Source: Gemmatimonadota bacterium
GTDB lineage: Bacteria > Gemmatimonadota > Gemmatimonadetes > Gemmatimonadales > GWC2-71-9
DNA: 64,000 nucleotides
Reading direction: 5' to 3'
Assembly: GCA_039590195.1 (NCBI GenBank)
Contig: JBDHFY010000003.1
Span: forward strand, 4,241 to 68,240
Shown: positions 27,222 through 53,373 of the stretch, one piece after another
Numbering within the stretch: the stretch's first letter is position 1
Layout: each line of letters opens with the position of its first letter
Translations under genes and position numbers: made by a program
The notes under the pieces: generated by a model
Told to the model about the DNA's origin: nothing
The model's database searches: none
The model's input: only the letters and a program-made list of their open reading frames with translations

Positions 27222-27241
27222 GTTAGCCTCCTCGCCCTGAT

Positions 27242-27275
27242 CCCCCCCATCCCCCCCCCAAGAGGTCACCCACCC
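27242..27275 (-). other. G-run cluster (G-quadruplex-type motif) on the sense strand just upstream of the DUF362 RBS
   Basis: The minus strand reads GGGTGGGTGACCTCTTGGGGGGGGGATGGGGGGGATCAGGGCGAGGAGGCTAACATG. That gives four or more G3+ runs within ~35 nt, ending ~20 nt before the ATG at 27221. Confidence 0.5.
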
Positions 27276-38474: not shown

Positions 38475-38500
38475 CTCTCTGCGGTCGGCACCGATAGTGG

Positions 38501-38516
38501 CAATTGACGTGCCAAC
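38501..38516 (-). promoter_or_regulatory. Sigma-54 (-24/-12) promoter of the minor-pilin operon
   Basis: The minus strand reads gatgtTGGCACGtcaaTTGCcact. This matches the TGGCACG-N4-TTGC consensus exactly, ~27 nt upstream of the ATG at 38474 and directly downstream of a sigma-54 enhancer-binding protein gene. Confidence 0.75.
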
Positions 38517-38626
38517 ATCTAACTGTAATGGCGACAATGGGTTAACGTGTTTGCGACGAGTCTCTGAGGATGCAAGATCTTACAGAGGTGCAAATTGGTG
38601 CAGGCGGGGCCCGCGAGCTTACAGGA

Positions 38627-39982
38627 CTAGATGGCGTGTTGCTTGAGCTTGTAGAACAGGCTGCGGATGCTCACGCCCAGGATCTTGGCGGCTTCGGCAC
38701 GGTTGCGGCCTGCCGCGCTGAGCGCCGCCTGAATGGCTTCGCGCTCGGCGCGACTGACGGCCACCTTGAGGGGGAGGGGGCCCCGATCCTGGCCGTTCTG
38801 CCCGTTGCCCGATGCAGCGGAGGGAGCCTCGGCAGACGCCGCGAACGCCTCAGCAGGCACCTTACCGTTGGGGGAGAGCACGACAGCCCGCTCGATGGCG
38901 TTTTCCAGCTCGCGCACGTTTCCGGGCCAGGGTCGCTGGCAGATCGCCGCCAGGACTTCCGGCGTGACGGTGACTCGTTGTCCGGTGCGTTCCATGCTCC
39001 GCTGGAAGAGGGCGAAGACGAGGGGCTCCAGGTCTTCCTGTCGCTCCCTGAGCGGCGGTACATGAATGCGGATCACATTCAGGCGGTAGTACAAATCCTC
39101 GCGAAACAGCCCCGCCTCGACGTCTTGCTCGAGGTCGCGGGCGGTGGCCGCCACGACCCTGACATCAACTTTGCGGACACCGGGGTGGCCCACGGGACGG
39201 ATCTCGCCCTCTTGCAGAACGCGAAGGAGCTTGACCTGGAGGGGCAACGGGAGGTCACCGATCTCGTCGAGTAGGAGCGTGCCGCCGTCGGCTTCCTCGT
39301 ACAGCCCGCGCCGCTTGGAGGTGGCCCCGGTGAAGGCGCCCTTGGCGTGTCCGAACAACTCGGATTCGAGCAGGGACTCCGGGATGGCTCCGCAATTGAG
39401 CGCCACGAACGGGCCCTCGCAGCGGGGGCTCATCGCGTGGATCTTGCGTGCTAATACTTCCTTGCCAGTCCCACTTTCGCCGGTCACGAGGACGGTGGTC
39501 GTGTGGGGCGCGACCCGGGCGGCCAGCTCCATCACGCGGCGCATGGCAGGAGACTGGGCGACCAGGTCGTGGTCCCGCCACTTAGCGAGCTCGGCCTCGA
39601 GCGAGGCCACCTGATCCCGCAACTGCTCCCGTTCCTGTGCCTTGCGGAGCGTAAGCGTAACCTCATCCGGGCGGAACGGCTTCGACAAGTAGTCATACGC
39701 GCCCCGCTTCATGGCCTCGATCGCCGCGTCCTCGGTGCCGTACGCACTCATCATGATGACGAGTGCCGCACCGCCTGCCTCCTTGTAGCGACGCAGGAAT
39801 TCCGGGCCGTCCATCTCGGGCATTCGTACGTCGCACAGGATGAGGTCGAACGGAGCTTGTCGGGTAAGGTCGAGGGCATCAACCGGTGAATTCTGAGCGA
39901 CCACGTTGTAGCCCTCGAGCTTCAGAAACCTGGATAGCCCGTCACGCAATCCGGGATCGTCGTCGACGATCAGAACCTTCAT
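38627..39982 (-). CDS. Sigma-54-dependent response regulator (NtrC/PilR-type enhancer-binding protein)
   Basis: ORF 38627-40231 trimmed to MKVLIVDDDPGLRD, whose ATG overlaps the kinase stop by 4 bp. Domains are REC, AAA+ (GESGTGKEV, GHAKGAFTGA, LLLDEIGDL, RVVAAT, RELEN) and a Fis-type HTH (NRAEAAKILGVSIRSLFYKLK). Confidence 0.9.
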   Translation of the reverse strand: MKVLIVDDDPGLRDGLSRFLKLEGYNVVAQNSPVDALDLTRQAPFDLILCDVRMPEMDGPEFLRRYKEAGGAALVIMMSAYGTEDAAIEAMKRGAYDYLSKPFRPDEVTLTLRKAQEREQLRDQVASLEAELAKWRDHDLVAQSPAMRRVMELAARVAPHTTTVLVTGESGTGKEVLARKIHAMSPRCEGPFVALNCGAIPESLLESELFGHAKGAFTGATSKRRGLYEEADGGTLLLDEIGDLPLPLQVKLLRVLQEGEIRPVGHPGVRKVDVRVVAATARDLEQDVEAGLFREDLYYRLNVIRIHVPPLRERQEDLEPLVFALFQRSMERTGQRVTVTPEVLAAICQRPWPGNVRELENAIERAVVLSPNGKVPAEAFAASAEAPSAASGNGQNGQDRGPLPLKVAVSRAEREAIQAALSAAGRNRAEAAKILGVSIRSLFYKLKQHAI

Positions 39983-40932
39983 TGGCCGCACGGTAGGAAC
40001 ACTTTGAACGCCGCTCCCCCCTCGCGCGCCCGGTCTACCCAGGCGATTCCGCCCAGTTCGTGCGCGGTTCGCTGCACCAAGGCGAGGCCGAGTCCTGTTC
40101 CTTTGCCCGGTTCCTTGGTCGTGAAGAAGGGGTCGAACACGTTCTCGGAGTCGTTGTTGCGAATGCCGGGGCCCGAGTCGGCGACGTACAGGAGGACACC
40201 GCGGCTGCCCGGCGGGAGTTCCGGCCGCCATGGACGCCGCGTGGCCGGTCTGGTCGAAACTGGACGCCGACGGTTGTCACCGCGCCGCCGCAGCGCATCA
40301 CCGTGAGGTTGGTACCCGGCTGCAAGTGCGCCCACGGCAATCGAGATGTTGGGTGCCGCGTCCACCGCATTGAGGAGCAGGTTCACCATCAGCTGTTCGA
40401 GGGCGTGGGCATTTCCACGCACCTTCGGCAATTTAGGGTCGCACTCGAACACCAGATTGGCGCGTTTGAGCACACCCTGTTGCTTCAACAGCTCGATGGC
40501 GGACCGCACCATCGCAGCCATGTCGATCTCGCTGACTGACTCCCTGTGAGTGTGAGCGTAATCCAGCAGGCTCCGCACGATGCGATCGATGCGCTCCGTT
40601 TCGCGTGAAAGCGCCTCGACGATCTCGCCGTCCGCGTCGGTGCGCTCGAGGAGACCGATGTAGGTCTTGATGGCCGAAAGGGGATTGCCGACCTCATGGG
40701 CAATCCCTGCGGCCATCCTCCCGATGCTCGCGAGCTTCTCCGCTCGCGCGAGTTGGCGCTGGACGTCCTCGCTCTGGGCGATCATACCGCAAACACTCTC
40801 CACATAACGTCTCGGCCCGGTGGATGTCCAGGACCAAGCCGAGCGACGTACACCGTTCGCCTCGAGCCCTCGACTATCCGTGCCGGTAGCTGCCGGATCA
40901 CCACTTCCCTCAACGACAGACACTCCGGCCAT
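39979..40932 (-). CDS. Cytoplasmic sensor histidine kinase (DHp + CA only; no TM or HAMP)
   Basis: 317-aa ORF. H-box RMAAGIAHEVGNPL, N-box LMVNLLLNAVDA, G1 DSGPGI, G2 GKGTGLGLA. There are only ~55 aa before the DHp helix. It is paralogous to the TM/HAMP kinase at 48492-49607. Confidence 0.85.
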   Translation of the reverse strand: MAGVSVVEGSGDPAATGTDSRGLEANGVRRSAWSWTSTGPRRYVESVCGMIAQSEDVQRQLARAEKLASIGRMAAGIAHEVGNPLSAIKTYIGLLERTDADGEIVEALSRETERIDRIVRSLLDYAHTHRESVSEIDMAAMVRSAIELLKQQGVLKRANLVFECDPKLPKVRGNAHALEQLMVNLLLNAVDAAPNISIAVGALAAGYQPHGDALRRRGDNRRRPVSTRPATRRPWRPELPPGSRGVLLYVADSGPGIRNNDSENVFDPFFTTKEPGKGTGLGLALVQRTAHELGGIAWVDRAREGGAAFKVFLPCGQ

Positions 40933-41500: not shown

Positions 41501-42691
41501 TCAGCTTGCCAGTGCGTGGGCGGCCACGCGTGCCGTTTCGGCCAGGACGGCGGCCCCCACGAAGATGCTCTCCTCTGCCGGAAAGAAACGGGGAGTGTGG
41601 GCGGGAATGACCTCACCGCCAGGTTCGCGGGCGCCTATTCGCAGGAAACAACCGGGAATCTCCTCGAGATAAAACGCGAAATCTTCGCCGGCCATGTTGA
41701 GGAACCCAAGGGGTACAAGGGCGGCCTCGCCCATGAGCGCCGCAACCGCCTTTCTCGCCCAGGCAACGGGCCGCTCTTCGTTGATGATTGGCGGTGTGCC
41801 GAGGCTCAGGTCCAAGGTTGCCCGCACCCCGTGCGCCTGTGCGGTATGCTCGACTATTCGCCGAACCTCGTCGTGCAGGAGTTGGCGCACCGCCGGTTCC
41901 ACCGTTCGAAGGGTCCCGCCGAGCGTGGCGGAATCAGGGATCACATTCGGAGCAGTGCCCGCATGGATGCTGCCGATGGTGACGACGCCGCATTGGGCGG
42001 GGTTCAACCGTCGTGACACTATTGTCTGCAGTGCACCGATCAATGCGCCGGCCGCGACGATGGGGTCGGCGGCCTCGTGGGGCCGGGCCCCGTGCGCCCC
42101 GCTTCCCTCGAGTTCGACGATGAACGCATCAGAAGCGGCCGCGAGGGGGCCGGTGTCTGCGACGACTTCCCCCAAGGCGAATCGGCGGTCGACATGGGCG
42201 CCAAAGATGGCGCTGGCGCCCTCGAGAGCACCGGTCTCGAGAATGGCCGGTGCTCCTTTGCCCGTCTCCTCCGCAGGCTGCAACACGACGAGCACGTCCC
42301 CCAGGGCCGGTTCGTGGGAGAGTAGGTGTGCGGCGCCCACTGCCCAGGTTGCGTGTACGTCGTGCCCGCAGGCGTGCATGACTCCGGCGTGCTCGGAGCT
42401 GAACGCCAGCCCGCTATTCTCCTGGATCGGTAGAGCGTCGATATCACCCCTGATTGCTACCACGGGGCCGGTTGGATCTTTCCCTTTGATCCGGGCCACG
42501 ACACCTGTGTCCGCCACCCGCTTCAGGTAAACGGGCTCGAGCTCGGATAGCTCGTCGTGAAGCCGCTGGGCCGTCCGCCCCTCCTCGAACGAGAGTTCCG
42601 GATGTTGGTGGAGGTCTCGCCGAAGCGTAACCAGCCGATCTCGCAGGGTTGGTGCAAACCGTTGCTGCAATTGAGTGAGCGCCGAAGCCAA
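41501..42691 (-). CDS. M20-family amidohydrolase (N-acyl-L-amino-acid amidohydrolase / hippurate hydrolase-like)
   Basis: The 642-aa ORF in the track runs through the upstream gene. The start is re-assigned to the TTG at 42691, which has AGGAGG 7 nt upstream. Motifs LHQHPELSFEE, IRGDIDALPI, MHACGHDVH, QPAEE, and a C-terminal dimerisation domain. Confidence 0.8.
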   Translation of the reverse strand: MASALTQLQQRFAPTLRDRLVTLRRDLHQHPELSFEEGRTAQRLHDELSELEPVYLKRVADTGVVARIKGKDPTGPVVAIRGDIDALPIQENSGLAFSSEHAGVMHACGHDVHATWAVGAAHLLSHEPALGDVLVVLQPAEETGKGAPAILETGALEGASAIFGAHVDRRFALGEVVADTGPLAAASDAFIVELEGSGAHGARPHEAADPIVAAGALIGALQTIVSRRLNPAQCGVVTIGSIHAGTAPNVIPDSATLGGTLRTVEPAVRQLLHDEVRRIVEHTAQAHGVRATLDLSLGTPPIINEERPVAWARKAVAALMGEAALVPLGFLNMAGEDFAFYLEEIPGCFLRIGAREPGGEVIPAHTPRFFPAEESIFVGAAVLAETARVAAHALAS

Positions 42692-42804
42692 GTCGTCGCC
42701 TCCTGTTGATCGGATGTTTCGAGGACGGCACCTGTCAGGAGCAATAATAATCCGAGGGGTTGCAGAAGGTGAGCGCTGAATGACGGATGGGTCCCGACCA
42801 GGGA

Positions 42805-44328
42805 CTACGGCTGCTCGATCCTCTCGGGTATTCGGGAGAAGCTGGCGAACCCCTCGAGGTTCACCTCGGCGACACCAGCCTGGCTGTCGAGCACGAACTG
42901 CACCAGCGTCTTGCCGACGCGGCGGTCGCGCCATGTGACTCGAAAAGTATCGAAATGCCAGTGCTCGAGCTCGCCGACGAGGGCTCCACCTTGTCGGACG
43001 ACCAGAGAACCATCGTGGGGTAGGACCTCGAGTTGTCCATACACGCTGTCCCCATACACGCCGACATACGCATCCAGGGGTAGGGAAGGAGTGGTGCCGG
43101 GGATGCGGGCTTCCTCGATCGCCTTGCGTTGCTTCGACTCCTGCTCTTGCTGATCCTCGAACGCCGTGAAGAGCTCGGAGCTCCAGTCCCGTTCGATGTG
43201 GCCGAGCCACAGATCGAAGATCCAATTCGTGAGGGCGTGGGGGAAGAGCGTGCCCTCCATGTTCGTCAATATGACGACGCCCAACCGGAGCTCCGGCATC
43301 ATGGCCACGACGGCGGTCATTCCGTCGATGTTGCCTCCGTGTTGTACGGCCATCCGTCCCCGGTAATCGAGGAGATACCAGCCGAGTCCGTAGCTGAGAA
43401 AGCGCGCTTCCGGCGCGAGGAGGACCCACTCCCCTTCTTTGCGAACCACCGTTTGAGGTGTCTGCGACTCCCTCACGCCCTCAGCACTGATGACTTGCAC
43501 CCCGCCAAGCGCACCTTCACCCAGATGCAACCGCACCCATTGAGCCATTTCGATGGCGTTGGAGTTGATGGCCACGGCTGGAGCGATGTTGTCGACGTTG
43601 CGCCAGGGAACGGTTACAATCCTTCCATCGATCCTGGCATGGGGGGTGGCCACGTTGACCCGGTCGGCAAAGAGATCGACTGAGGTGCCACTCCGAGACA
43701 TTCCCAGAGGATCGAAGATGCGTTGCTTGACGAACTCATCCCAGGTCAGACCGGCAACGGCCTCAATGACGCTCCCGGCCGCGAGAAACATGATGTTCTG
43801 GTAGCCGAACCGCGAGCGGAAGCTCCAGCTTGGCTTCAAAAAGCGAATGCGCCGCAGAATCTCGTCACGGGAGAATTCCGTTCCGTACCAGAGCCGATCC
43901 CCCCGAGCCAAGCCGCTACGGTGGCTGAGGAGGTCGCGCACCGTGATTTCGCGAGTTATGTACGGATCGTGGAGCTGAAAGCCGGGAAGATAATCCGTGA
44001 CCCGATCATCCCATTTCAGGCGACCCTCGTCCACCAACATCGCAATGGACGCTGCGGTGAAGGCCTTTGAGGCGGACCCGATCGCGAAGTTGGTGAATTC
44101 GTCGACTGGTGTGGGTTCGCCGACCTCTCGACGGCCATAACCCTTGGCGAAGATGATGGAGTCGTCTTTAACGATGGAGATGGCGAGACCGGGGATCTTC
44201 CATTCCCGAAGCCCGTCCTGGATGTACCGATCCAGCCCCCTGAGTGGGCCGGTCTGTCCCGGGAGGGTCGCCGTTGGGAGGAAGAGAGCGATCAACGGGG
44301 AAAGGCGCAGGGCTGATACCGATTTCAT
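42805..44328 (-). CDS. Beta-lactamase-fold serine hydrolase (class C/PBP4*-like) with C-terminal extra domain
   Basis: 507-aa ORF with a signal peptide. SxxK motif FAIGSASKAFTA, plus SHRSGL. The C-terminal ~110 aa are lipocalin-like (DUF3471-type, assigned from memory of this architecture). Confidence 0.8.
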   Translation of the reverse strand: MKSVSALRLSPLIALFLPTATLPGQTGPLRGLDRYIQDGLREWKIPGLAISIVKDDSIIFAKGYGRREVGEPTPVDEFTNFAIGSASKAFTAASIAMLVDEGRLKWDDRVTDYLPGFQLHDPYITREITVRDLLSHRSGLARGDRLWYGTEFSRDEILRRIRFLKPSWSFRSRFGYQNIMFLAAGSVIEAVAGLTWDEFVKQRIFDPLGMSRSGTSVDLFADRVNVATPHARIDGRIVTVPWRNVDNIAPAVAINSNAIEMAQWVRLHLGEGALGGVQVISAEGVRESQTPQTVVRKEGEWVLLAPEARFLSYGLGWYLLDYRGRMAVQHGGNIDGMTAVVAMMPELRLGVVILTNMEGTLFPHALTNWIFDLWLGHIERDWSSELFTAFEDQQEQESKQRKAIEEARIPGTTPSLPLDAYVGVYGDSVYGQLEVLPHDGSLVVRQGGALVGELEHWHFDTFRVTWRDRRVGKTLVQFVLDSQAGVAEVNLEGFASFSRIPERIEQP

Positions 44329-44442
44329 GGCAGCCTCTCCAAGCGTCGGCGCACGGGCGGCTGGGGCGGGGAAAGGCTAATCCCGACTTCGAACCCGCCG
44401 AATCCCCCAATCCGATCCCTGGCTATTGATAACCTTGTTCCG

Positions 44443-45897
44443 TCACGGCGTTCCCCGCACGGGCTGCCCCGGGCGCACGGACTCCTTCAACTCACCCCCG
44501 TCGACGACCACCACACCGTTCACCAGCACATACGTGAATCCCTCTGAGTACTGAGCTGGATCTTGATACGTGGCCCGCTCGCGCACCTGGCTTGGATCGA
44601 AAACGACGATATCAGCGTCGGCCCCTTCCGACAAACGTCCCTTGCGTCGCATCACCGGCGCGGCCTGGACGAGACGCTGCGCCGGCATGTAGCTCATGCG
44701 TCGGATGGCATCCATCAACGTGAGATGTCCTTCTTCACGCACGTACATCGCCAGCATCTTCCCGTACGTCCCCGCGCCCCTCGGATGGCCTCGCCCATTT
44801 GAGATGCCACCGTCACTGCCCACCATGACATACGGGCTCGTCAGCGCCATCACGTTGCCGCGCTTCGGTACGAAGTGGATGACGACAGGCGTGGGTGTAC
44901 CGTCCTCGCGATACCGCCGGAAGGTTTCCTCGGTGAGCCGTTCACCGTTGGACACCAGTTCGATATCCCTGTACGAGATCTGCATGCGCTCCTGCCATCC
45001 GGGGTCGAACACCGCCGACTCGAGACCGGTGGAGCCCGCTTCCCACGGGTACGCATCAGCCGTCACGTCGATCCCGTGCGCCTGTGCGCCTGCGATCAAC
45101 TTGAGGGAGATGTCCATCTCGTGGCCCGCCACGGAGTTGATGTGAACGATCTGCGCAGCGGCTCCTGTGGCGGCGGCGTTGGCGATAACCTCCTGAATGC
45201 CCTTTGCACTGTTCTCGGGCGGATGGGGTCCCAGAAAGCGGATGTGGAGGTGACACGGGACTCCGGTCTCACCGCAAACGCGGAACAACTCGAATACTTC
45301 GTCGGCAGACGCTCCGGGAACGTATTGCACACCGAATCCGATGCCGACAGCCCCTTCGCGGATCGCTCGCTTCGCCAGCGTCACCATGCCCTCGATCTGG
45401 GCGGTCGTCGCAGGGACGTTGCGGTCCTCGATCCCGACGGCCACGCGCAACGCGCCATGTCCCACTGTCGTGCCGTAGTTGATGATACGCCCCTCGCCCG
45501 AGAGAGAGTCGTACCAGCGCCCCACTTCCACGGGGCCCCCGTGCATGCGGAGAATGGTCGTGACGCCATCCATCACCTTGTAGCGATTTCCCTCGATAGA
45601 GAAGCCACTGCTCAAGATGTCGATGAATCCGGGAGCAACAACCTTGCCCTCTGCGTCGATGACCCGATCACCGTCGATCGCAGCGACCGTCACGACGGCG
45701 ACTCGACCGTTGGAGATTCCGACATTGGCCCTGCTGTCGTAACCGGTTTCTGGATCCATCACCCGCCCGCCGCGGATCACGATGTCGTAGGGTGCCTCCT
45801 GAGCCAGAGCTGAATGCGCGAGGCTAGCGGAGAGGACGGGGGAAAGTCCTACCACCACCATTCGGCTCACTCCATGTAGACCTCTGTAATTCTTCAT
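44443..45897 (-). CDS. Amidohydrolase-superfamily protein, N-acyl-D-amino-acid deacylase-like
   Basis: 484-aa ORF with a signal peptide. The D-aminoacylase-like N-terminus is YDIVIRGGRVMDPETGYDSRANVGISNGRVAVV...VVAPGFID. Later metal-site-like segments are CHLHIRF, VHINSV and VGSDGG. The HxH normally following PGFID is replaced by ILS, so activity is uncertain. Confidence 0.6.
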   Translation of the reverse strand: MKNYRGLHGVSRMVVVGLSPVLSASLAHSALAQEAPYDIVIRGGRVMDPETGYDSRANVGISNGRVAVVTVAAIDGDRVIDAEGKVVAPGFIDILSSGFSIEGNRYKVMDGVTTILRMHGGPVEVGRWYDSLSGEGRIINYGTTVGHGALRVAVGIEDRNVPATTAQIEGMVTLAKRAIREGAVGIGFGVQYVPGASADEVFELFRVCGETGVPCHLHIRFLGPHPPENSAKGIQEVIANAAATGAAAQIVHINSVAGHEMDISLKLIAGAQAHGIDVTADAYPWEAGSTGLESAVFDPGWQERMQISYRDIELVSNGERLTEETFRRYREDGTPTPVVIHFVPKRGNVMALTSPYVMVGSDGGISNGRGHPRGAGTYGKMLAMYVREEGHLTLMDAIRRMSYMPAQRLVQAAPVMRRKGRLSEGADADIVVFDPSQVRERATYQDPAQYSEGFTYVLVNGVVVVDGGELKESVRPGQPVRGTP

Positions 45898-45931
45898 CGA
45901 CGCCTCCTCGACTGTTTCTCTCTCAAACGTC

Positions 45932-45973
45932 TGGTGCAGCTAACAGCTAATGGCTAACAGCTAGCAGCTGCAT
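45932..45973 (+). repeat. Heptamer repeat TGGTGCA GCTAACA GCTAATG GCTAACA GCTAGCA GCTGCAT
   Basis: Six phased 7-mers filling the gap between the class-A-like gene stop (45973) and the upstream gene start (45897). Confidence 0.7.
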
Positions 45974-46983
45974 CACGGATTAAAGAGGAAATAATCGTGG
46001 ATTGCTCTTGCGATATGGGCTATGGCCAGCTCGCGTTCGGACCCTTCGAGATCTGACTCCTTGACGAGCACCACCGTCACGACATGTCCGGCTTCGTTGG
46101 GAAGCGTGACGATGCCCACGTCGTTGGTGGTACCACCGATCGTTCCGGTCTTGTGAAAGACTTCCGTGTCCGGCGGCAACAGGCCCTTGATCCGCGCACG
46201 TCCGGTCGTGCTTCGTCGCATGATGTCCAGCAGTAGGTCGGAGCTCTGCTCACTGAGAATCTCCTTGCGCCAGATGCGCGCTAGGAGATCGGCCATGGCG
46301 TGCGGCGTGGCCGTATCCCGGGTATCTCGCTCGAACGCCTCGCCCGCTCGTTCCCTCACCTCATCCGGAATGCTGTCGGCGAGCTCGGAGAAATCGTGGG
46401 GCGTCACGTCACCGCTGGGTGGCAGGCCCTCCACGCCGATCCAGTCGCCGATCAAATGGACCGTTGGCCGATTCACGTCGATACCATCGATGCCGAGGGC
46501 TCGCATCCTGGCCGTCACGGCCTCCCCTCCACCGGCGGCGGTGAGAACCATGTCCGTTGCCGAGTTGTCACTGATGAGAAGCATGAGTTCAGTGAGATTT
46601 CGCAGCGAGAGGATGACTCCGGGGTCGTCGAAAAGTCGAGAGAGTGTTCCGCTTCCTGGATGCAGGTCGACCTGCCGGACCTCTATCATGGAGTCTAGGC
46701 TGATCTCGCCCGCGTCAACGCGGGTGAAGAGTTGCACGGCTATGGGCACCTTGTAGGTACTGGCCATGCCGAATCGCTCCCCGCCGTTGTGAGACACACG
46801 TCGCCCCGTCTCGAGGTGGATGGCCGCCACCCCGACCGGTCCTCCCGCCAGCTCGGCAAGCCGGGCGATTTCCGCTTCCAAATGTTGCAGGTGCGGGTCG
46901 GTCTGTGCATCGAGCGGTGTGGAGGGCAGGGCCACCGCAATGCAGATGTACGTAGCAGCGAGCAACTTACTCCGTACGGTCAT
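45973..46983 (-). CDS. Class A beta-lactamase-family serine hydrolase
   Basis: 336-aa ORF with a signal peptide. All three class A motifs are in order: STYK (SxxK), SDN, KTG (FHKTGTIGG). Confidence 0.8.
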   Translation of the reverse strand: MTVRSKLLAATYICIAVALPSTPLDAQTDPHLQHLEAEIARLAELAGGPVGVAAIHLETGRRVSHNGGERFGMASTYKVPIAVQLFTRVDAGEISLDSMIEVRQVDLHPGSGTLSRLFDDPGVILSLRNLTELMLLISDNSATDMVLTAAGGGEAVTARMRALGIDGIDVNRPTVHLIGDWIGVEGLPPSGDVTPHDFSELADSIPDEVRERAGEAFERDTRDTATPHAMADLLARIWRKEILSEQSSDLLLDIMRRSTTGRARIKGLLPPDTEVFHKTGTIGGTTNDVGIVTLPNEAGHVVTVVLVKESDLEGSERELAIAHIARAIHDYFLFNP

Positions 46984-47014
46984 GGCATTTGCTCCTTGGT
47001 TGTAGCCGTAGATG

Positions 47015-47035
47015 GCTGGCAGCCGGCAGCTGGCC
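47015..47035 (+). repeat. Heptamer repeat GCTGGCA GCCGGCA GCTGGCC
   Basis: Three phased 7-mers about 30 nt upstream of the class-A-like gene start (46983). Same family as 29148, 34853 and 53424. Confidence 0.6.
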
Positions 47036-47185
47036 CGGCGCGCGCGTGAGGGAGGTCGCGCCTCAGGTCCTCGGTGGCGCCCGCGACCGGGGCGTCTCCA
47101 CGGAGCGATCTCCCCCCGCGCGCGCCCTGAACCGGAAGCTGAACGCCGGGGTGGGCACCTGATTCACAACCGGGTGCCCGCTTTG

Positions 47186-47213
47186 CTAAGCCCCAACCCC
47201 TAAGCCCTGAGCT
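47186..47213. repeat. Heptamer repeat TAAGCCC CAACCCC TAAGCCC TGAGCTC
   Basis: Four phased 7-mers of the C-rich class overlapping the 3' end and stop of the racemase-family gene. A GGGCACC...GGTGCCC hairpin lies just upstream (47155-47180). Confidence 0.55.
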
Positions 47214-48321
47214 CCTCCGAGCGCACCGTCAGCTCGTCGACGCGGGCGACGTCCACCGTGACTCCGATGCCCGGCTTGTCCCGTGGCACGGACACCATCC
47301 CCTGCGCGGTCATGGTCCATTCAGGTGTCACGATGTCACGCGCCCAGTATCGAGCGCTTGGGCTCAGGTCGCCCGGCAGCGTGAAATTGGGCAGTGATGC
47401 AAGCGACACGTTGTACGCTCGTCCCACTCCGCTCTCCAGCATGCCGCCACACCACACGGGAACGTCGTGGTGTGCACAGAGGTCGTGGATAGCCTTGGAC
47501 ACCGTGATGCCGCCGACCCTTCCGGGTTTGATATTGATGATCTTGCCGCTGCCAAGGGTGATCATGTCTTGCGCCCTGGCCACGTTCGTGATCGACTCGT
47601 CGAGGCAGATCGGCGTCTTGAGCCGTCGTTGGAGTTCGGCGTGTTGCACGACGTCGTCCCACGCGAGAGGCTGCTCGATCATCAACAGGTCAAATTCGTC
47701 GAGTCGAGTCAAATGATCGAAATCGTCGCGCGTATAGGCGTTGTTGGCGTCGGCCATCAGCGAGACGACTGAGCCCAGCTCCTCACGGACCGCGCTGACG
47801 TACTCCATGTCCGAGCCCGGAGCGATCTTGATCTTGATCTTGCGGTAGCCCGCCTCGTGTGCGCTGCGCGCCTTTTCCACCAACGCGGCGGGGCTCGGCT
47901 GGATGCCGAGAGATATGCCGGTGCCGATCTCCGTGCGTGTTCCGCCAATGAGTTCGGACAGGCTCATGCGCCGGCATTCTGCTTCGAGGGCCCACATGCC
48001 CATCTCCACTGCGGCCTTCGCCATGTTGTGACCTCGGAAATCTCGTTCCAAGACATCATGCACCTGAGCCGCTCGTTCGAAGGCTACGCCGAGAACCCGC
48101 GGTGCTACCCATAGAGAAATGGCTAACCAGGCGGTGTCGATGGTTTCGGGAGAGTAGTTGGGCTGCTCATCCGCTACGCACTCGGACCAAGCCGTGCGGC
48201 CGCCGGCGTCGTGGAGTTCCAGCAGCAGAATCCTCCGGACGCTCAACGTCCCTGAGGAGATCTTGAACGGTTCGCGGAGCGGGAGGTGGATTTCGCGGAG
48301 GGTAAGGCGTTCGATTCTCAC
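47200..48321 (-). CDS. Enolase-superfamily o-succinylbenzoate synthase / N-acyl(succinyl)amino acid racemase family protein
   Basis: 373-aa ORF with a GTG start. MLE-subgroup catalytic pattern KIKIKIAPG (KxK), MADANNAY (D), MIEQPL (E), CLDES (D), NIKPGRVGG (K). Confidence 0.8.
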   Translation of the reverse strand: MRIERLTLREIHLPLREPFKISSGTLSVRRILLLELHDAGGRTAWSECVADEQPNYSPETIDTAWLAISLWVAPRVLGVAFERAAQVHDVLERDFRGHNMAKAAVEMGMWALEAECRRMSLSELIGGTRTEIGTGISLGIQPSPAALVEKARSAHEAGYRKIKIKIAPGSDMEYVSAVREELGSVVSLMADANNAYTRDDFDHLTRLDEFDLLMIEQPLAWDDVVQHAELQRRLKTPICLDESITNVARAQDMITLGSGKIINIKPGRVGGITVSKAIHDLCAHHDVPVWCGGMLESGVGRAYNVSLASLPNFTLPGDLSPSARYWARDIVTPEWTMTAQGMVSVPRDKPGIGVTVDVARVDELTVRSEELRA

Positions 48322-48491
48322 AGCGTAGCTCGTAAGTGCAAGTGTTCAGCGCGACGGCAGAGGATGGGGATTGCGTAAAACATCCGATCTGAAGCCGGCT
48401 TTTGGACTCCCAGCTCTTCCTGGGCGTGGTGACGCAACAATTCTATTGCATGAACCGTCATGGAGCCATGACCTTCTCCCGTTCTCGTAGC

Positions 48492-49607
48492 CTATTCCGG
48501 GGGGATGTCTTGCGCGCTCGGTAGGAAGACTTTGAACGCTGCACCGCCTTCCCGGGCCCGATCGACCCACGCAATGCCACCCAAGTCGAACGCCGTACGC
48601 TGGACGATGGCAAGACCTAACCCCGTTCCTTTCCCGGCGTCCTTCGTGGTATAGAAGGGCTCAAAGATGTGCTCCACGTATTCCTCGGGGACACCGACAC
48701 CAGAGTCAGCCACGCAGATCAACACCCCTGGGCTCCCCGGGAGCAACTCGGGGCGCCAGGGCCTCCGTACGCGCGGGCGCGTGTGGACGGGGCGATCACG
48801 GGCATCTCCCCTCCGGCGCAACGCGTAGCCCAACGGTCGATAGTGCGCCGAGAGCGTTGCCACAGTGATCGACCCCGCTGGGGCGGCGTCCACCGCGTTC
48901 AAGATCAGATTGACCATCAACTGCTCGAGAGTGTGGACCTGCGCGACAATGTGTGGTAGCTCAGGGTCGCGCTCCACAACGATGGTGATATTCTTCAACA
49001 CACCCTGCTGAGTCAGGAGTTCGATCGCGGCTTGCGCGACTGCCCCCAAATCAACCTCGGTCAGGGAGTCCCGCCTAGTGCGGCCGGAGTCCAGCAAGCC
49101 TCGGACAATGCGATCGATCCGGTCCATCTCGCGCGTAATCGCCTGGACGATTTCTGGATCGGGCTCGCCCTGTTCCAGCAGTGCTAAGTATGTCTTCATG
49201 GCCGCCAAGGGATTCCCAATTTCGTGAGCGATGCCAGCGGCCATTCTCCCGATGGCGGCCAACTGCTCGGCGCGTCCGAACTGTCTCTGGACGTCCGCCA
49301 CGTGCTCGGTCATGCTGTTGAATCGGTTAGCCAAGACGGCAAATTCGCGACTCGCGGCTTGTGGAGCACGGTGAGTAGGATCGCCCGCGGCGAGGGCGTT
49401 CGCGGTCGCTGCCAGTGATTCGAGCGGACCGATGACCAGCTTGCGAACCAGATGTTTTCCGTATGCGAGTGTTGCCGTGGCACAAGCGACGAGCGCGAGT
49501 GCGACGGCTAGCACGCCGAAGAGGGGTAGCGCAGGTGCCAGCCACACTGAGATCGCCAAGGCGATGCTGAGAGCTACGACAGGTGCTGCCAGGCGGGAGA
49601 GGAGCAC
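48492..49607 (-). CDS. Membrane sensor histidine kinase (2 TM + HAMP + DHp + CA)
   Basis: ORF 48492-49805 overlaps the upstream GNAT gene, so the start is provisionally the GTG at 49607. TM helices (AAPVVALSIALAISVWLA / LFGVLAVALALVACATATLAY), a HAMP-like linker, H-box AAGIAHEIGNPL, N-box LMVNLILNAVDA, DSGVGV, GKGTGLGLA. No response regulator is adjacent. Confidence 0.8.
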   Translation of the reverse strand: MLLSRLAAPVVALSIALAISVWLAPALPLFGVLAVALALVACATATLAYGKHLVRKLVIGPLESLAATANALAAGDPTHRAPQAASREFAVLANRFNSMTEHVADVQRQFGRAEQLAAIGRMAAGIAHEIGNPLAAMKTYLALLEQGEPDPEIVQAITREMDRIDRIVRGLLDSGRTRRDSLTEVDLGAVAQAAIELLTQQGVLKNITIVVERDPELPHIVAQVHTLEQLMVNLILNAVDAAPAGSITVATLSAHYRPLGYALRRRGDARDRPVHTRPRVRRPWRPELLPGSPGVLICVADSGVGVPEEYVEHIFEPFYTTKDAGKGTGLGLAIVQRTAFDLGGIAWVDRAREGGAAFKVFLPSAQDIPPE

Positions 49608-49686
49608 TCTCTCGAGGCGCGGCTGGGTTCCAGTGGCTTCAGTCGCACTGGCACCCCAGGCATCGGCCTCACCGATCCGCGTTTGT

Positions 49687-50538
49687 TTACTGGCGCTCGA
49701 GGAGATAGAAGCCACGATTGCCCTTATCCAAGTGGAAACCCTGAACTTGGTACCCCTTTTCCAGGTACCAGAGAAACGCTGTCCTGGTCGTCCTGCGCCA
49801 GGCATTGGCGGATTCCAAGGAGACGGACTTCACACGCTGGATGTCTCCCGGAATCTCGATCCTGACCGACGCGTGAGTGGGTAATGTCGTTCCCGCCGGC
49901 AGGGGCTCCCCTTCGCTGTTGGTGTTCACGACCGCCACCTTGCTGAATTCGGGTCGCGGCGAAGCCCGGGAGCCGGCCAGTGATTGCTCGACCCGAGGAT
50001 GGTTAAAATCCCATCGAACGACGAACCGATCGGTGCCCAGCCCGCTGTGGAGATCGCTTCCCGTGTCGTCACCGTACATTTCGGGGACGTACTCGACGGG
50101 GAGCGCTCCGAGGCGGTTGACATTGAGATTGGCGTTGCGGGCTTCGAGGGGGTCGTACGTCCAATAGGCAACCTCGACACCGCGGCTGAGCAGAAGCTGG
50201 CGTTGGTACTCCTTGAGGCGTCGTCCCAAACCTGAGCCCTGAGCTTCTGCTCGGACCGCCAGCATGTGAGACCAGTGTGCAGGTTGGCCGTCTCGGATTC
50301 CCGTCAAGCCGAACACGAATCCGATGAGCTGACCGCTACCGTCGAACGCCCCGGCCGCGATCCCCCCCGCCTTTTGGCTAATCATGAGGATGCTGGAGGG
50401 AACACACTCGGTGAATTCCTGGCCCCAGGTATCGCGTTGGAGCGCCTTGCATTGTTCGTAATCATCAAACGAATGGAATTCGCGGAGCGTCATGCCGTGG
50501 AATGAGGTGGACGAAGAGGTTGATGAAGGCGGTACCAT
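49687..50538 (-). CDS. GNAT-family acyltransferase (two-lobed, COG3375-like)
   Basis: 283-aa ORF whose ATG overlaps the upstream transporter TGA (ATGA). Acyl-CoA pocket-like segment HMLAVRAEAQGSGLGRRLKEYQ (Q/RxxGxG/A). Confidence 0.65.
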   Translation of the reverse strand: MVPPSSTSSSTSFHGMTLREFHSFDDYEQCKALQRDTWGQEFTECVPSSILMISQKAGGIAAGAFDGSGQLIGFVFGLTGIRDGQPAHWSHMLAVRAEAQGSGLGRRLKEYQRQLLLSRGVEVAYWTYDPLEARNANLNVNRLGALPVEYVPEMYGDDTGSDLHSGLGTDRFVVRWDFNHPRVEQSLAGSRASPRPEFSKVAVVNTNSEGEPLPAGTTLPTHASVRIEIPGDIQRVKSVSLESANAWRRTTRTAFLWYLEKGYQVQGFHLDKGNRGFYLLERQ

Positions 50539-51644
50539 CAGAGCGACTTCCGAGCCTGCCCTCGCATCTTCCAGATTCCGAGCGTCAGGATCGGCACGAC
50601 AAACACGGCGAGGAAGAACCAGGTAATCGTTCCGTATCCTCTGGCAATGAGGCCGATCAATCCGAATCGGGCGATGATCGAGCCGGCGATGAGGAGACCG
50701 AGCGCGACCGCCGGACGGAGGTAAATGGGCATCGTGACATTCCGTTCACTGAACGCACCGGCGATCCGCTCGTTGAGCCCGTGGATCATGCCTGTGCCGG
50801 TCTCGATGAGCGTTCCGAAGAGCACGATCTGGAATACGAGCTGGAACGCTCGCGAGCCAAGGATGTCCAGCAGGAAGTTGGCAGGAACGGCGTGCTCCAG
50901 CACCTGAGGGTATTGGCCTACCATCGAAAGATAGAAAAGGAAACCTGGAATGATGGCGATTGGGCCCGCCAGAATCCCCGCCGTGACAGCTTCGCGTCGC
51001 GTGTCGACGTGCCGCACGCAGAAGAGCAACGCCGGAATGAGCGAGAGATTGTAACCGGCGTACTTTACGCCACCGACGATCCAACGCGCGCCCGGGGGCT
51101 CGCTGCCCAGGCTCGATACGATGTCGCCGCCAAATCGGCTGAGACACCACACGAAAAAGACGGCGTACACACCGTAGAGCACAAATGACCAGCTGGCCAG
51201 AAACTTCTCGATGAGGCCCGTTCCGCGGAAGACCAGAAAGCCAACAGCCGCCATGATGCCCACGACTCCCAGATCGTGAGGTAGTCCGAAGGACTCTTGC
51301 AGGATGGCGCCCGCGGCGGCCGCAATGACCGCCAGCACCAGGAGAAGCTGGGCGACATACAGCGGCTCGTAGAGAAACCAGCCTCTTCCAAGCAAGTGCT
51401 TGAAGAAGCTGCGATAGTCGTAGCTTCTGAAGAGCCGGGAGAACTCAAAACTAGAGGCGCACACGGCACTCCAGATGGTCGTGGACACCAGAATCATGGC
51501 GAGGAGGCCGCCGAGCGGCCCGTACGTGAGAAAAAACTCCGCCAACTCGCGGCCGGTCCCGTAGCCCCCCGCGATCACCACCGACTGAAACACGAAGCCA
51601 GGCAACAGGTACTTCTGAAAGAACACTGATTTCACCGATTCCAT
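50538..51644 (-). CDS. Polytopic membrane protein, YkvI/amino-acid-transporter-like
   Basis: ORF 50538-52520 trimmed to MESVKSVFFQKYLLPGFVFQSVVIAGGYGTGRELAEFF (GAAGGA RBS). About 11 TM segments. The upstream 292 codons of the track ORF are repeat-derived (PAPPAPP) and non-coding. Confidence 0.6.
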   Translation of the reverse strand: MESVKSVFFQKYLLPGFVFQSVVIAGGYGTGRELAEFFLTYGPLGGLLAMILVSTTIWSAVCASSFEFSRLFRSYDYRSFFKHLLGRGWFLYEPLYVAQLLLVLAVIAAAAGAILQESFGLPHDLGVVGIMAAVGFLVFRGTGLIEKFLASWSFVLYGVYAVFFVWCLSRFGGDIVSSLGSEPPGARWIVGGVKYAGYNLSLIPALLFCVRHVDTRREAVTAGILAGPIAIIPGFLFYLSMVGQYPQVLEHAVPANFLLDILGSRAFQLVFQIVLFGTLIETGTGMIHGLNERIAGAFSERNVTMPIYLRPAVALGLLIAGSIIARFGLIGLIARGYGTITWFFLAVFVVPILTLGIWKMRGQARKSL

Positions 51645-51810
51645 TCCTTCGAGAGGCCGGAGCAGGGGATCCAGCCGGCGTGGAGAGTCCTGCCCCGACT
51701 TGGTGTCATTCCCACAACTACGATCGCAATGGGGTAGCGCCCGCTGCTCGAGCTTGGGCGCGGTCGGTGAGCAATAGCATATCACAATGTAGGGTTTTGT
51801 CCATGTGGGT

Positions 51811-51918
51811 GGAGGGGCAGGAGGGGCAGGAGGGGCAGGAGGGGTAGGAGGGGCAGGAGGGGCAGAAGGGGCAGGAGAGGCAGGAGAGGCAGGAGACGAA
51901 AAGGGGGCAGAAGAGGCA
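51811..51918 (+). repeat. 9-bp tandem repeat GGAGGGGCA (about 12 increasingly degenerate copies); G-quadruplex motif
   Basis: ggaggggca x3, ggaggggta, ggaggggca x2, gaaggggca, ggagaggca x2, ggagacgaa, aagggggca, gaagaggca. It lies in the divergent region between the transporter (start 51644, minus) and the dipeptidase (start 52042, plus). There are seven GGGG runs with 5-nt spacers on the plus strand. Confidence 0.85.
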
Positions 51919-52041: not shown

Positions 52042-53373
52042 ATGCGACCTGGCGGCTGCGTGCTGGTTATGGCAATGCTCGGCTTCATCCATTCCACCAA
52101 GGCCCAAGAGCCCTGGCCGGAGCCCGGCCCGGAGCTGTTGAGCCGGGCCAGAGCGCTTCTCTCCCAGGTGCCGCTCATAGACGGACACAACGATCTCCCG
52201 TCAACGCTGCTGGAGACCGTGGGCGGCGATTTGAATCGGGCCGACATCGCCCTCCGCCAGCCGCAGCAGTCGGCCGATCTGCCACGGTTGCGGGAAGGGA
52301 TGGTCGGAGGGCAGTTCTGGTCGGCACATGCGCCGGCCGAGACCATGTTCACAGGAGACGCGCTAGCGCGATCCCTCCAGCAGATCGACATGGTCCACCG
52401 CCTGGTGGCGCGATATCCGGATCTGGAGCTTGGCCGTACGGCTGAGGATGTCGAACGGATCCACACGGAGGGGAAGATTGCGTCTATGATCGGGGTCGAG
52501 GGTGGGCACATGATCGACAACTCCCTCGCGGCGCTCAGGATGTTCTACAGGCTCGGCGGCCGCTACATGACGCTGACCCACTTTCGAACCACCGACTGGG
52601 CGGATGCCGCCACGGACGTGCCCCGACATGGTGGGCTCTCGGAGTTTGGTGAAGAAGTCGTACGGGAGATGAACCGACTTGGAATGTTTGTCGACCTTTC
52701 GCACGTCAGTGTCGAGACGATGAGAGACGCGCTCCGAGTTAGCCGCGCGCCCGTGATTTTCTCACACTCTAACGCTCTCGCGGTCAACATACACCCTCGC
52801 AACGTCCCGGATGACGTGCTTGGGATGGTGGCGGAGAATGGGGGAGTGGTGATGGTGAACTTCATCGCCGGCTACGTTCCGCCGACGCCGCCGGAATGGC
52901 GTAGCCTGACGGGCAGCGCCGCGGCAACATTCCATCTCCAGGCAGGGCAATCCGCCGACGAGCCCGTGTGGAACGCCCGCCGCATCGAGGTGGTGGAAGG
53001 GCTTCGGGCGGAGCTGGATGATGACGCGGAGATCACGCGGCGTCTCGCCGAGTGGGTACGGCAGAATCCTCCACCCAGGGGAACGGTGGGGGACGTGGCG
53101 GATCACATCGACCACATCCGGAACGTGGCCGGCATCGACCACATCGGAGTAGGGTCAGATTTCTATGATGCCGGCGGGCCCTCGATGGCGGCCGGCCTCG
53201 AGGATGTCAGCAAGTTCCCCGTGCTGTTCGCGGAACTGTTGCGGCGAGGTTACAGTGACGAGGATATCAAGAAGATCGCCGGCCTAAACATGTTGCGGGC
53301 GATGCGAGAGATGGAACGGGTTGCCCAGGAATTGCGCCGTGACCATGGCCCGTCGCTCGCCGAGCTGCGGTAG
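52042..53373 (+). CDS. M19-family membrane (renal-type) dipeptidase
   Basis: ORF 51805-53373 trimmed to MRPGGCVLVMAMLGF (signal). Signature VPLIDGHNDLP, GGQFWS, IEGGH, MTLTH, VDLSHVS, IFSHSN. Confidence 0.85.
   Translation: MRPGGCVLVMAMLGFIHSTKAQEPWPEPGPELLSRARALLSQVPLIDGHNDLPSTLLETVGGDLNRADIALRQPQQSADLPRLREGMVGGQFWSAHAPAETMFTGDALARSLQQIDMVHRLVARYPDLELGRTAEDVERIHTEGKIASMIGVEGGHMIDNSLAALRMFYRLGGRYMTLTHFRTTDWADAATDVPRHGGLSEFGEEVVREMNRLGMFVDLSHVSVETMRDALRVSRAPVIFSHSNALAVNIHPRNVPDDVLGMVAENGGVVMVNFIAGYVPPTPPEWRSLTGSAAATFHLQAGQSADEPVWNARRIEVVEGLRAELDDDAEITRRLAEWVRQNPPPRGTVGDVADHIDHIRNVAGIDHIGVGSDFYDAGGPSMAAGLEDVSKFPVLFAELLRRGYSDEDIKKIAGLNMLRAMREMERVAQELRRDHGPSLAELR

Follow-up and report, generated by a model that had tools for sequence, protein, structure and literature searches.

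A cluster of genes on the minus strand of a 64 kb stretch of Gemmatimonadota DNA (contig JBDHFY010000003.1; the whole stretch, ∼62% G+C, is hereafter called the window) probably encodes a Gemmatimonadota version of the pathway that irreversibly converts D-amino acids to L-amino acids, expanded into a cluster for the salvage of D-amino acids and D-peptides. The known pathway comprises a GNAT succinyltransferase, an enzyme of the NSAR/OSBS subfamily (NSAR, N-succinylamino acid racemase; OSBS, o-succinylbenzoate synthase) and an M20 L-desuccinylase; in Lysinibacillus and Roseiflexus, NSAR genes sit in operons of this kind (bioRxiv 10.1101/2022.03.03.481873; PMC12006748). An earlier reading of the same DNA, made from the letters alone (the sequence-only reading), had claimed that the same trio of activities as in Geobacillus kaustophilus is encoded here, and this was supported by the protein families as well as by the conservation of the unit elsewhere. 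All eight minus-strand open reading frames (ORFs) that it listed were present at the coordinates it gave. The ORFs of the window were assigned to families by Pfam and NCBIfam searches, and each of the eight genes belongs to the family claimed for it; in the case of the GNAT, a marginal Pfam match was joined by a GNAT fold in the structural model, and for the membrane protein, which had no Pfam match, the predicted fold was used.

The putative racemase of the enolase superfamily

[quoted passage not shown] This subfamily of the MLE subgroup (muconate lactonizing enzymes) is recognized by a KxK motif where beta-strand 2 ends, D/E/D metal ligands, a lysine at the end of beta-strand 6 and the arginine R266, together with more than 40% identity to known members and a score over the cutoff of the subfamily model, not of other OSBS models. 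The catalytic set, the R266 equivalent and the expected similarity were all found in the window protein. Specifically, it scored 320.8 bits on TIGR01928 (cutoff 200.65) and remained far under the cutoffs of TIGR01927, NF002739 and NF002782. The best PDB match was the NSAR of Amycolatopsis (1SJA; E = 1.5e-92, 46% identity over the full length), and the other top matches came from Deinococcus (1R0M), Thermus (2ZC8), Listeria (1WUF) and Enterococcus (1WUE), all of them characterized enzymes, either racemases of N-acyl- or N-succinylamino acids or of the NSAR/OSBS type.

At the residue level, K163, K165, D191, E216, D241 and K265 aligned with K161, K163, D189, E214, D239 and K263 of the Amycolatopsis enzyme. 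An R266-type second-shell arginine is absent from non-promiscuous OSBS subfamilies. The sequence-only reading had singled out this residue for checking, and R268 of the window protein, located in the motif IKPGR, aligned with Amycolatopsis R266. Within the NSAR/OSBS subfamily the arginine is conserved, and it is important for racemase chemistry (bioRxiv 10.1101/2022.03.03.481873; PMC12006748). In addition, the catalytic set was kept in all 75 GNAT-linked NSAR homologues described below, bar one unreadable position, and of 77 aligned sequences, 76 had arginine at the R266 position and one an unreadable X.

The putative acyltransferase and deacylase

The GNAT protein is divergent. Pfam Acetyltransf_1 matched it at 22.5 bits, marginally over the cutoff of 20.7, and a PDB sequence search with it gave no match. 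An AlphaFold model built on 49 homologues (pLDDT 94) placed residues ∼10–170 on the fold of Naa10, PA4866 and RimJ-type GNATs (Foldseek probability 1.00, target-normalised TM-scores up to 0.83), and an extra C-terminal domain of ∼100 amino acids extended beyond the acyltransferase fold. The acyl-CoA motif QGSGLG lies at residues 100–105, with G103 and G105 invariant across the family alignment, so that both the fold and the Q/RxxGxG/A motif that mark the GNAT superfamily were found in this protein. The family is large, comprising 4327 clusters (50% identity) at E ≤ 1e-3. Three of its members (P0052, P0105 and P0119) carry the JGI name 'chorismate synthase', presumably a propagated misannotation.

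The window GNAT was 29–35% identical to GNATs whose genes share an operon with menC in Bacillus, Brevibacillus, Oceanobacillus, Deinococcus, Sulfitobacter and Streptomyces, including those of Bacillus sp. F19 (32%, E = 3e-41), Brevibacillus (30%, E = 1e-34) and Oceanobacillus (29%, E = 6e-32). When the GNAT of Bacillus sp. F19 served as the query for a homologue search, many Bacillaceae were recovered and no named Geobacillus.

The M20 protein scored 336 bits on TIGR01891 and matched YxeP (PDB 1YSJ) at E = 4e-78. Its gene starts with TTG, preceded by an AGGAGG ribosome-binding site. It was 66% identical to the M20 encoded directly after the NSAR gene in the Gemmatimonadota genome CP070815 (L002; L numbers denote the loci compared) and shared 28–31% identity with the M20 proteins encoded in the operons of Bacillus sp. 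F19, Brevibacillus and Oceanobacillus.

Conservation of the linkage in related genomes

For the genome-context search that the sequence-only reading had proposed, we scanned one genome per GTDB species with an alignment of 13 GNAT sequences and took the best 80 loci, mostly from Gemmatimonadota and Acidobacteriota, which were compared by tblastn and ORF clustering; 78 of them were assessable for the GNAT-NSAR linkage and 66 for the M20. An NSAR homologue adjoined the GNAT gene on the same strand in 75 of the 78 loci, almost always directly downstream. By phylum, the pair was found in 40 of 42 loci of Gemmatimonadota, in all 23 of Acidobacteriota and in 12 of 13 from other groups (Calditrichota, Ignavibacteriales/Bacteroidota, KSB1, Hydrogenedentes and unclassified). 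The clustering of GNAT and NSAR is far beyond chance. An M20 of the window type followed the NSAR gene in 20 of 33 loci of Gemmatimonadota, 2 of 21 of Acidobacteriota and 6 of 12 of the others, and any M20 within the scanned 7–8 kb either side of the GNAT gene was present in 35 of the 66 loci.

The GNAT protein was 100% identical to one on contig JBDHHD010000354.1 (GCA_039589555.1), where the surrounding genes were ∼99% identical to those of the window and kept their order (tblastn). In the sister metagenome-assembled genome (MAG; L006/L007), the YkvI-family transporter, the GNAT, the kinase, the NSAR, the class-A-like hydrolase and the amidohydrolase were found in the same order as in the window, at 84–91% amino-acid identity (tblastn). 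In CP070815, the YkvI, GNAT, NSAR and M20 genes are contiguous with no inserted genes. In CP070666 (L003, Gemmatimonadota), YkvI, GNAT and NSAR genes are followed by an opposite-strand M55 peptidase gene and then by an M20 gene of a different subtype. Since the core in these two genomes is without the kinase and the three exported hydrolase genes while the sister MAG has them, the four genes are, as judged from the compared sequences, lineage-specific insertions into a conserved operon. The three core genes of the window remain on one strand within 9 kb, interrupted by these four.

Accessory families recurred among the related loci, mostly of Gemmatimonadota and Acidobacteriota: PF00144 proteins with DUF3471 in 12 loci, GntR regulators in 11, D-aminoacylase-like amidohydrolases in 8, TonB-dependent receptors in 8, fusions of S12 and M15 domains in at least 7, APC permeases in 6 and S9 peptidases in 5. 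The asparaginase and DUF1028 proteins did not recur among these loci.

Counterparts in cultured organisms

GNAT homologues were detected by tblastn in plasmid records of Bacillus, Deinococcus, Streptomyces, Sulfitobacter and Gemmatirosa. In all six plasmid records inspected, the GNAT gene lay within ∼1 kb of a gene annotated as menC or, in the unannotated Gemmatirosa record, of an NSAR homologue, and Gemmatirosa kalamazoonensis is a cultured relative carrying the GNAT-NSAR pair on plasmid 2. Several of the loci in cultured organisms are rich in accessory genes, and their genes are listed here in order. Bacillus sp. F19 encodes a peptide ABC transporter, menC, the GNAT, an M20 aminoacylase, an S9 peptidase, a beta-lactamase-family protein, a class-A-related serine hydrolase and a MurR regulator; Brevibacillus invocatus, a peptide ABC transporter with an embedded Beta-lactamase2 gene, the NSAR, the GNAT, a PF00144 protein with DUF3471, another PF00144 protein, an M55 D-aminopeptidase and an M20; and Streptomyces rimosus, an M19 dipeptidase, an M20, the GNAT, menC and a serine hydrolase. 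A minimal form, in Oceanobacillus profundus, consists of MurR, M20, GNAT and NSAR, likewise in order. Identities between the window proteins and their counterparts in the cultured loci were 43–50% for the NSAR, ∼27% for the S12 hydrolase and 31–35% for the class-A-like hydrolase, and homologues of the last stood beside the GNAT-NSAR pair in L025, L056, L063, Bacillus sp. F19 and Brevibacillus.

The sequence-only reading had described the route as supplemented by exported hydrolases and an importer. That view is supported by the accessory families, which recur beside the core genes of Bacillus sp. F19, Brevibacillus invocatus and Streptomyces rimosus, and their presence in Bacillus and Brevibacillus supports a role in the salvage of D-peptides and D-amino acids. 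In Deinococcus (D. radiodurans MP1, L088; D. ficus, L092) and Sulfitobacter (L090), menC and GNAT are joined to amino-acid ABC transporter genes and a MurR/RpiR regulator, not to YkvI. The M20 beside the GNAT in D. ficus and S. rimosus belongs to a subfamily other than that of the window, which means that the desuccinylase partner is not orthologous across phyla.

Predicted exported hydrolases and neighbouring genes

The features of the cluster and of its surroundings are given in Table 1.

Table 1. Predicted features in and around the GNAT-NSAR-M20 cluster (positions in the window).
Position	Strand	Feature	Basis or remark
38627..40231	-	NtrC-type sigma-54 activator, nearest regulator	Paired with its own kinase
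39979..40932	-	Histidine kinase partner of the NtrC-type regulator	Translationally coupled
41501..42691	-	Cytoplasmic M20D aminoacylase-type amidohydrolase, putative N-succinyl-L-amino acid desuccinylase; last gene of the unit	TIGR01891
42805..44328	-	Exported S12 (class-C/PBP-like) serine hydrolase with C-terminal DUF3471, putative D-stereospecific peptidase	PF00144 + PF11954
44443..45897	-	Exported amidohydrolase related to N-acyl-D-amino-acid deacylases	NCBIfam PRK09061, 498 bits
45973..46983	-	Exported class-A-like serine hydrolase	PF13354; STYK, SDN, KTG
47200..48321	-	NSAR/OSBS-subfamily enzyme, putative N-succinylamino acid racemase	TIGR01928 and catalytic residues
48492..49607 (start also 49715 or 49805)	-	Membrane histidine kinase: two transmembrane helices, HAMP, HisKA, HATPase_c	Pfam
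49687..50538	-	Divergent GNAT-fold N-acyltransferase, putative D-amino acid N-succinyl (or N-acyl) transferase	Marginal Pfam and AlphaFold fold
50538..51644	-	YkvI-family (COG3949) LeuT/APC-fold secondary transporter, putative D-amino acid importer; first gene of the operon	AlphaFold fold
51776..51895	.	Upstream control region of ykvI	9-bp tandem repeat and sigma-70-like site
~52045..53373	+	Exported M19 membrane-type dipeptidase, divergent from ykvI	PF01244, 373 bits
53474..54433	-	Asparaginase, neighbour gene	PF00710 + PF17763
54560..57052	+	830-aa fusion of S12 serine hydrolase and VanX-type M15 D-Ala-D-Ala dipeptidase	PF00144 + PF01427

The S12 hydrolase carries the motifs SASK, YQN and HGG, and its best PDB matches were Pab87 (2QMI), ClbP and alkaline D-peptidase. 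A second S12 domain occurs in the fusion protein, which matched Pab87 (2QMI) and the R61 DD-peptidase (1CEF), with VanX (1R44) as the match of its C-terminal domain; the best solved relatives of both PF00144 proteins, D-specific enzymes throughout, also include D-amino acid amidase and D-aminopeptidase. In L009, L010 and L014, the strand opposite to ykvI encodes a homologue of the fusion (58–73% identity) just upstream of that gene.

For the amidohydrolase, the best PDB matches were an N-acyl-D-Glu deacylase (3GIP, E = 5e-41) and D-aminoacylase (1M7J, E = 2e-34). When compared with the reference residues of the Alcaligenes D-aminoacylase (H67-x-H69, C96, H220, H250 and D366), it kept the equivalents of H220, H250 and D366. 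The HxH motif is absent (FIDILSS versus FIDSHTHD), and C96 aligned with G120, to which H119 is adjacent.

Class A beta-lactamases are characterized by S70xxK, S130DN and K234TG and by the omega-loop general base E166 (with N170). In the class-A-like protein of the window, a 47-aa insert takes the place of the omega loop, no residue aligned with E166 or N170, and HMMER split every class A match into two stretches around the insert. Its best PDB relative was LRA-5 (8EO5–8EO7). It scored 210 bits on NF033103 (cutoff 200), and despite this marginal pass we rejected its identification as a true beta-lactamase, as it is without E166. Its gene is likely to be mis-called as a resistance gene.

All hydrolases, including the M19 dipeptidase and the asparaginase, have signal-peptide-like N-termini, and the GNAT, NSAR and M20 proteins have none. 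This distribution fits an extracytoplasmic release of amino acids followed by their conversion in the cytoplasm. The M19 dipeptidase, the asparaginase and the VanX-type dipeptidase named in the sequence-only reading are all real, but they had been placed downstream of the operon and in fact stand upstream of it and divergent. Moreover, the VanX-type M15 domain, present as claimed, is not a free-standing enzyme but the C-terminal part of the S12 fusion.

Elsewhere in the window, the first 29 kb holds four kinds of genes twice, namely MacB/FtsX permeases (3199–5874 and 23409–26165), Rce1-like CAAX proteases (8908–9789 and 27386–28207), DUF362 proteins (12018–13130 and 26220–27269) and Ser/Thr protein kinases (6431–8854 and 17665–19305). 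A further PF00144 hydrolase is encoded at 16028–17551.

The YkvI-family transporter and its upstream region

The translational coupling of the GNAT gene to a membrane protein gene, as the sequence-only reading had described it, was borne out: the TGA of the membrane protein gene overlaps the ATG of the GNAT gene by one base in the string TGATG. Neither Pfam nor a PDB sequence search gave a match for the membrane protein, and its homologues carry the JGI name 'uncharacterized membrane protein YkvI'. Its AlphaFold model (pLDDT 87) matched AdiC, CodB, MhsT, LAT1, BasC and AgcS (Foldseek probability 1.00; query-normalised TM-scores 0.6–0.72) and contains the LeuT-type core with at least 10 transmembrane helices. 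A YkvI gene stood directly before the GNAT gene in 11 of the 78 assessable loci, all of them closest relatives and 10 of the 11 labelled Gemmatimonadota. In Pyrococcus horikoshii, the gene of the YkvI-family protein PH0137 is co-induced by D-allo-Ile with that of a broad-specificity amino-acid racemase, and PH0137 was proposed as a D-amino-acid importer (2026 study, PMC13628549).

In L004 and L005 (7433–11116), a YkvI homologue with 77% identity to that of the window has neither GNAT nor NSAR beside it. There it lies directly downstream of the futalosine-pathway genes radical-SAM CofH_C and VitK2_biosynth, on a related metagenomic contig.

Between the divergently transcribed ykvI and M19 genes lies a tandem repeat at 51811–51895 with the 9-bp unit GGAGGGGCA (9.4 copies, 93% matches; Tandem Repeats Finder), located just upstream of a sigma-70-like site (51803–51776, minus strand). 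At the equivalent position, the sister MAG has a degenerate CT-rich 9-bp array (L007:110–175). The array may be a regulatory or a variable-number element. Promoter and terminator scans of the cluster gave site counts equal to chance.

The histidine kinase and regulation

The kinase gene stands between the GNAT and NSAR genes, and the copy in the sister MAG was 88% identical; it was absent from all other loci compared (L002, L003 and L008–L086). The closest kinases are of the AtoS/ZraS type. The sequence-only reading had suggested that this embedded orphan kinase senses the island, which found no support: only a very short loop connects its two transmembrane helices, leaving no extracytoplasmic sensor domain, and no response regulator is encoded within the cluster. 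Direct sensing of periplasmic D-amino acids by the kinase was rejected because it has no periplasmic domain. Quite speculatively, the transporter might act as its co-sensor.

Control of the cluster by the nearby NtrC-type regulator through sigma-54 was also rejected, as no site lies before the cluster genes. A search of the window for TGGCAC-N5-TTGCW gave 21 matches against 25 expected, none of them before cluster genes. The regulator gene is followed by two genes with N-terminal methylation (pilin-like) motifs, which are preceded by the one good site of the search, a sigma-54-like −24/−12 site at 38499–38514, and from its sequence the unit 36830–40932 (minus strand) looks like a separate PilSR-type system. 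A small response regulator with a Fis-type helix-turn-helix is encoded at 34890–35489.

Proposed pathway and alternative explanations

The pathway that we infer, in its enzymatic activities, acyl donor, substrates and localisation, would run in five steps. First, exported hydrolases would free D- and L-amino acids outside the cytoplasm from peptides with D-residues (cell-wall stem peptides and non-ribosomal peptides) and from N-acyl-D-amino acids; the candidates are the two S12 D-peptidase-like enzymes, one of them fused to VanX, the class-A-like hydrolase, the D-aminoacylase-like amidohydrolase and the M19 dipeptidase. The YkvI-family LeuT-fold transporter would then bring in D-amino acids, which the GNAT would N-acylate, with succinyl-CoA as the donor by analogy. 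The NSAR/OSBS enzyme would racemise the N-acyl amino acid by a two-base 1,1-proton transfer that relies on K165 and K265, while D191, E216 and D241 hold Mg2+. Finally, the M20D enzyme would remove the acyl group from the L-isomer only, and this selectivity would pull the equilibrium towards the L-amino acid.

Several points weigh against this proposal. The window-type M20 follows the NSAR gene in only 28 of the 66 loci, with just 2 of 21 in Acidobacteriota. Within the window, three genes separate NSAR from M20 (gaps of 75–216 bp) and the kinase gene separates GNAT from NSAR; in view of these insertions, the gaps and the uninformative promoter and terminator scans, co-transcription across the inserted genes is likewise something that we infer. 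The GNAT and the M20 of the window are tied to the G. kaustophilus enzymes only by way of Bacillaceae operons of like architecture. The pathway roles given above to the class-A-like protein and the amidohydrolase are guesses, each protein being without a canonical catalytic feature (E166 and HxH, respectively). Furthermore, the Gemmatimonadota order SG8-23 was reported to favour the classical Men pathway (PMC9426454), and because some Gemmatimonadota orders use that pathway, the enolase-family enzyme could also serve as an OSBS.

A rival explanation is that the enzyme is the o-succinylbenzoate synthase of menaquinone synthesis, whether this is its only function or one of two in an NSAR/OSBS enzyme, with the GNAT and the M20 unrelated or secondary to it. 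In its favour, the protein passes the cutoff of TIGR01928, a model labelled as an OSBS equivalog, plasmid records give homologues the name menC, and characterized members of the subfamily usually keep OSBS activity, some being predicted to be bifunctional (PMC12006748). The genomic context argues otherwise. A Pfam scan of essentially every plausible ORF in the window found no men gene (menF, menD, menH, menB, menE or menA), and the racemase gene, linked to GNAT across phyla, was never linked to men genes in the loci inspected. The YkvI locus of a close relative lies beside the futalosine genes VitK2_biosynth and radical-SAM CofH_C, and Gemmatimonadales were reported to favour the futalosine route (PMC9426454). 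Moreover, the arginine R266, on which racemase chemistry depends to an important degree, does not vary. We regard this explanation as distinctly unlikely, and a purely menaquinone role is unlikely because the GNAT linkage is invariant.

The same logic might operate with other acyl chemistry, the GNAT using acetyl-CoA or another acyl-CoA, the racemase acting on N-acetylamino acids and the M20D being a deacetylase; alternatively, the route might serve mainly to detoxify D-amino acids. Characterized M20D relatives remove acetyl, benzoyl or other acyl groups from N-acylated L-amino acids (YxeP, 1YSJ; ILR1-like, 1XMB; N-acyl-glutamine aminoacylase, 6SLF), the nearest structural neighbours of the GNAT are acetyltransferases, and PDB depositors named the closest enolase relatives 'N-acylamino acid racemase'. 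On the other side, N-succinyl substrates are the biological ones in the characterized subfamily, and the GNAT of G. kaustophilus is a succinyltransferase (bioRxiv 10.1101/2022.03.03.481873; PMC12006748). No sequence feature separates the acyl donors, which makes this a variant of the proposed pathway instead of a true alternative; we consider it unlikely. Chance juxtaposition is another explanation, under which only GNAT and NSAR work together while the hydrolases, the amidohydrolase, the M19 dipeptidase, the VanX fusion and the asparaginase are unrelated genes for housekeeping, cell-wall remodelling or resistance. It agrees with the presence of the three exported hydrolase genes and the kinase as insertions in the window lineage and sister MAG only, most related loci being without them, with the failure of the asparaginase and DUF1028 to recur and with the marginal score of the class-A-like protein on a class A beta-lactamase model. 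Yet that protein is without the deacylating E166, and like families adjoin the GNAT-NSAR pair in unrelated phyla, namely the beta-lactamase-family and class-A-related proteins of Bacillus sp. F19, the Beta-lactamase2, PF00144 with DUF3471 and M55 proteins of Brevibacillus and the M19 and serine hydrolase of S. rimosus. The recurrence of PF00144 with DUF3471, D-aminoacylase-like, S12-M15 and S9 proteins in the Gemmatimonadota and Acidobacteriota set also speaks against chance, which we judge a very improbable account of the cluster.

Implications

The chemistry of the route has been known since 2006, and the advance made here concerns its distribution and context, not its mechanism. Modestly new is the accessory layer round the GNAT-NSAR core, consisting of the YkvI importer, the D-peptidase-like 'beta-lactamase' homologues and the D-aminoacylase-like enzymes, the hydrolase and peptidase families of which recur in distant phyla, while YkvI was seen only in Gemmatimonadota; no description of this layer was found in the searchable literature. 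More speculatively, and less likely than not, the GNAT-NSAR pair could be the core of a D-peptide salvage module shared by Gemmatimonadota, Acidobacteriota, Calditrichota, Bacillota and Actinomycetota of soil and sediment. YkvI proteins would then be dedicated D-amino-acid importers, and the co-clustered 'beta-lactamase' homologues (S12 with DUF3471, S12-VanX and the class-A-like proteins without an omega loop) would be D-stereospecific peptidases feeding the pathway and not resistance enzymes. If true, this would give functions to several large uncharacterized families, and part of the environmental 'resistome' signal would reflect D-amino-acid nutrition.

These findings also bear on annotation. 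Pipelines name the racemase 'o-succinylbenzoate synthase (menC)' and the neighbouring hydrolases 'beta-lactamases', and the gene context points to D-amino-acid conversion. Metabolic reconstructions of Gemmatimonadota and Acidobacteriota, including their counts of 'men-like' genes, would be corrected by such a reading. In addition, the linkage offers functional hypotheses for the YkvI family, the S12 hydrolases bearing DUF3471 and the class-A-like proteins without E166. In soils and sediments, a sizeable pool of nitrogen consists of D-amino acids derived from peptidoglycan and necromass. Its use by abundant, poorly cultured phyla would be explained by an irreversible D-to-L route with exported D-peptidase-like enzymes.

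Comparison with known systems

The closest functional precedent is the G. kaustophilus operon (Sakai et al., 2006), whose GNAT is a succinyl-CoA:D-amino acid N-succinyltransferase (as summarised in bioRxiv 10.1101/2022.03.03.481873; PMC12006748). The window is like it in the three protein families, their placement on one strand, the NSAR subfamily and the catalytic residues with R266. It differs in belonging to the phylum Gemmatimonadota, in the YkvI gene coupled before the GNAT gene and in the inserted kinase and three exported hydrolases. The menC-GNAT-M20 operons of Bacillaceae provide the connection, with GNATs 29–32% identical to that of the window (E 1e-32 to 1e-41).

Among known racemases, the closest are the NSAR/OSBS enzyme of Amycolatopsis sp. 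T-1-60 (1SJA–1SJD) and the N-acylamino acid racemase of Deinococcus radiodurans (1R0M, 1XPY). The window protein resembles the former in KxK, D, E, D, K and R266 and in the G291/M292 region, and differs from it in the 20s loop (R20 to K, F23 to S) and at M50 (to D). Because of these differences, its side-chain preference may differ from that of the Amycolatopsis enzyme.

A parallel for the transporter is the broad-specificity amino-acid racemase (BAR) cluster of P. horikoshii (PH0137 and PH0138), compared here at the family level. In both cases, a YkvI-family gene lies immediately upstream of a gene for D-to-L conversion, a predicted function in the window; in P. horikoshii the two are co-expressed. 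[quoted passage not shown]

The exported hydrolases have their own relatives. The PF00144 proteins share an SxxK/YxN/HxG-type architecture with the S12 D-peptidases, including 2QMI, ClbP, the Bacillus cereus enzyme 4Y7P, the Ochrobactrum enzyme 1EI5 and Streptomyces R61 (1CEF), but they are only ∼25–30% identical to them, and in addition to PF00144 one has DUF3471 and the other a fused VanX-type M15 domain. For the class-A-like protein, the relative is LRA-5 from a soil metagenome, and the alignment breaks at the omega-loop region in both proteins; at the place of the 47-aa insertion of the window protein, the connection in LRA-5 is very short, and the window protein is encoded inside a predicted D-amino-acid operon.

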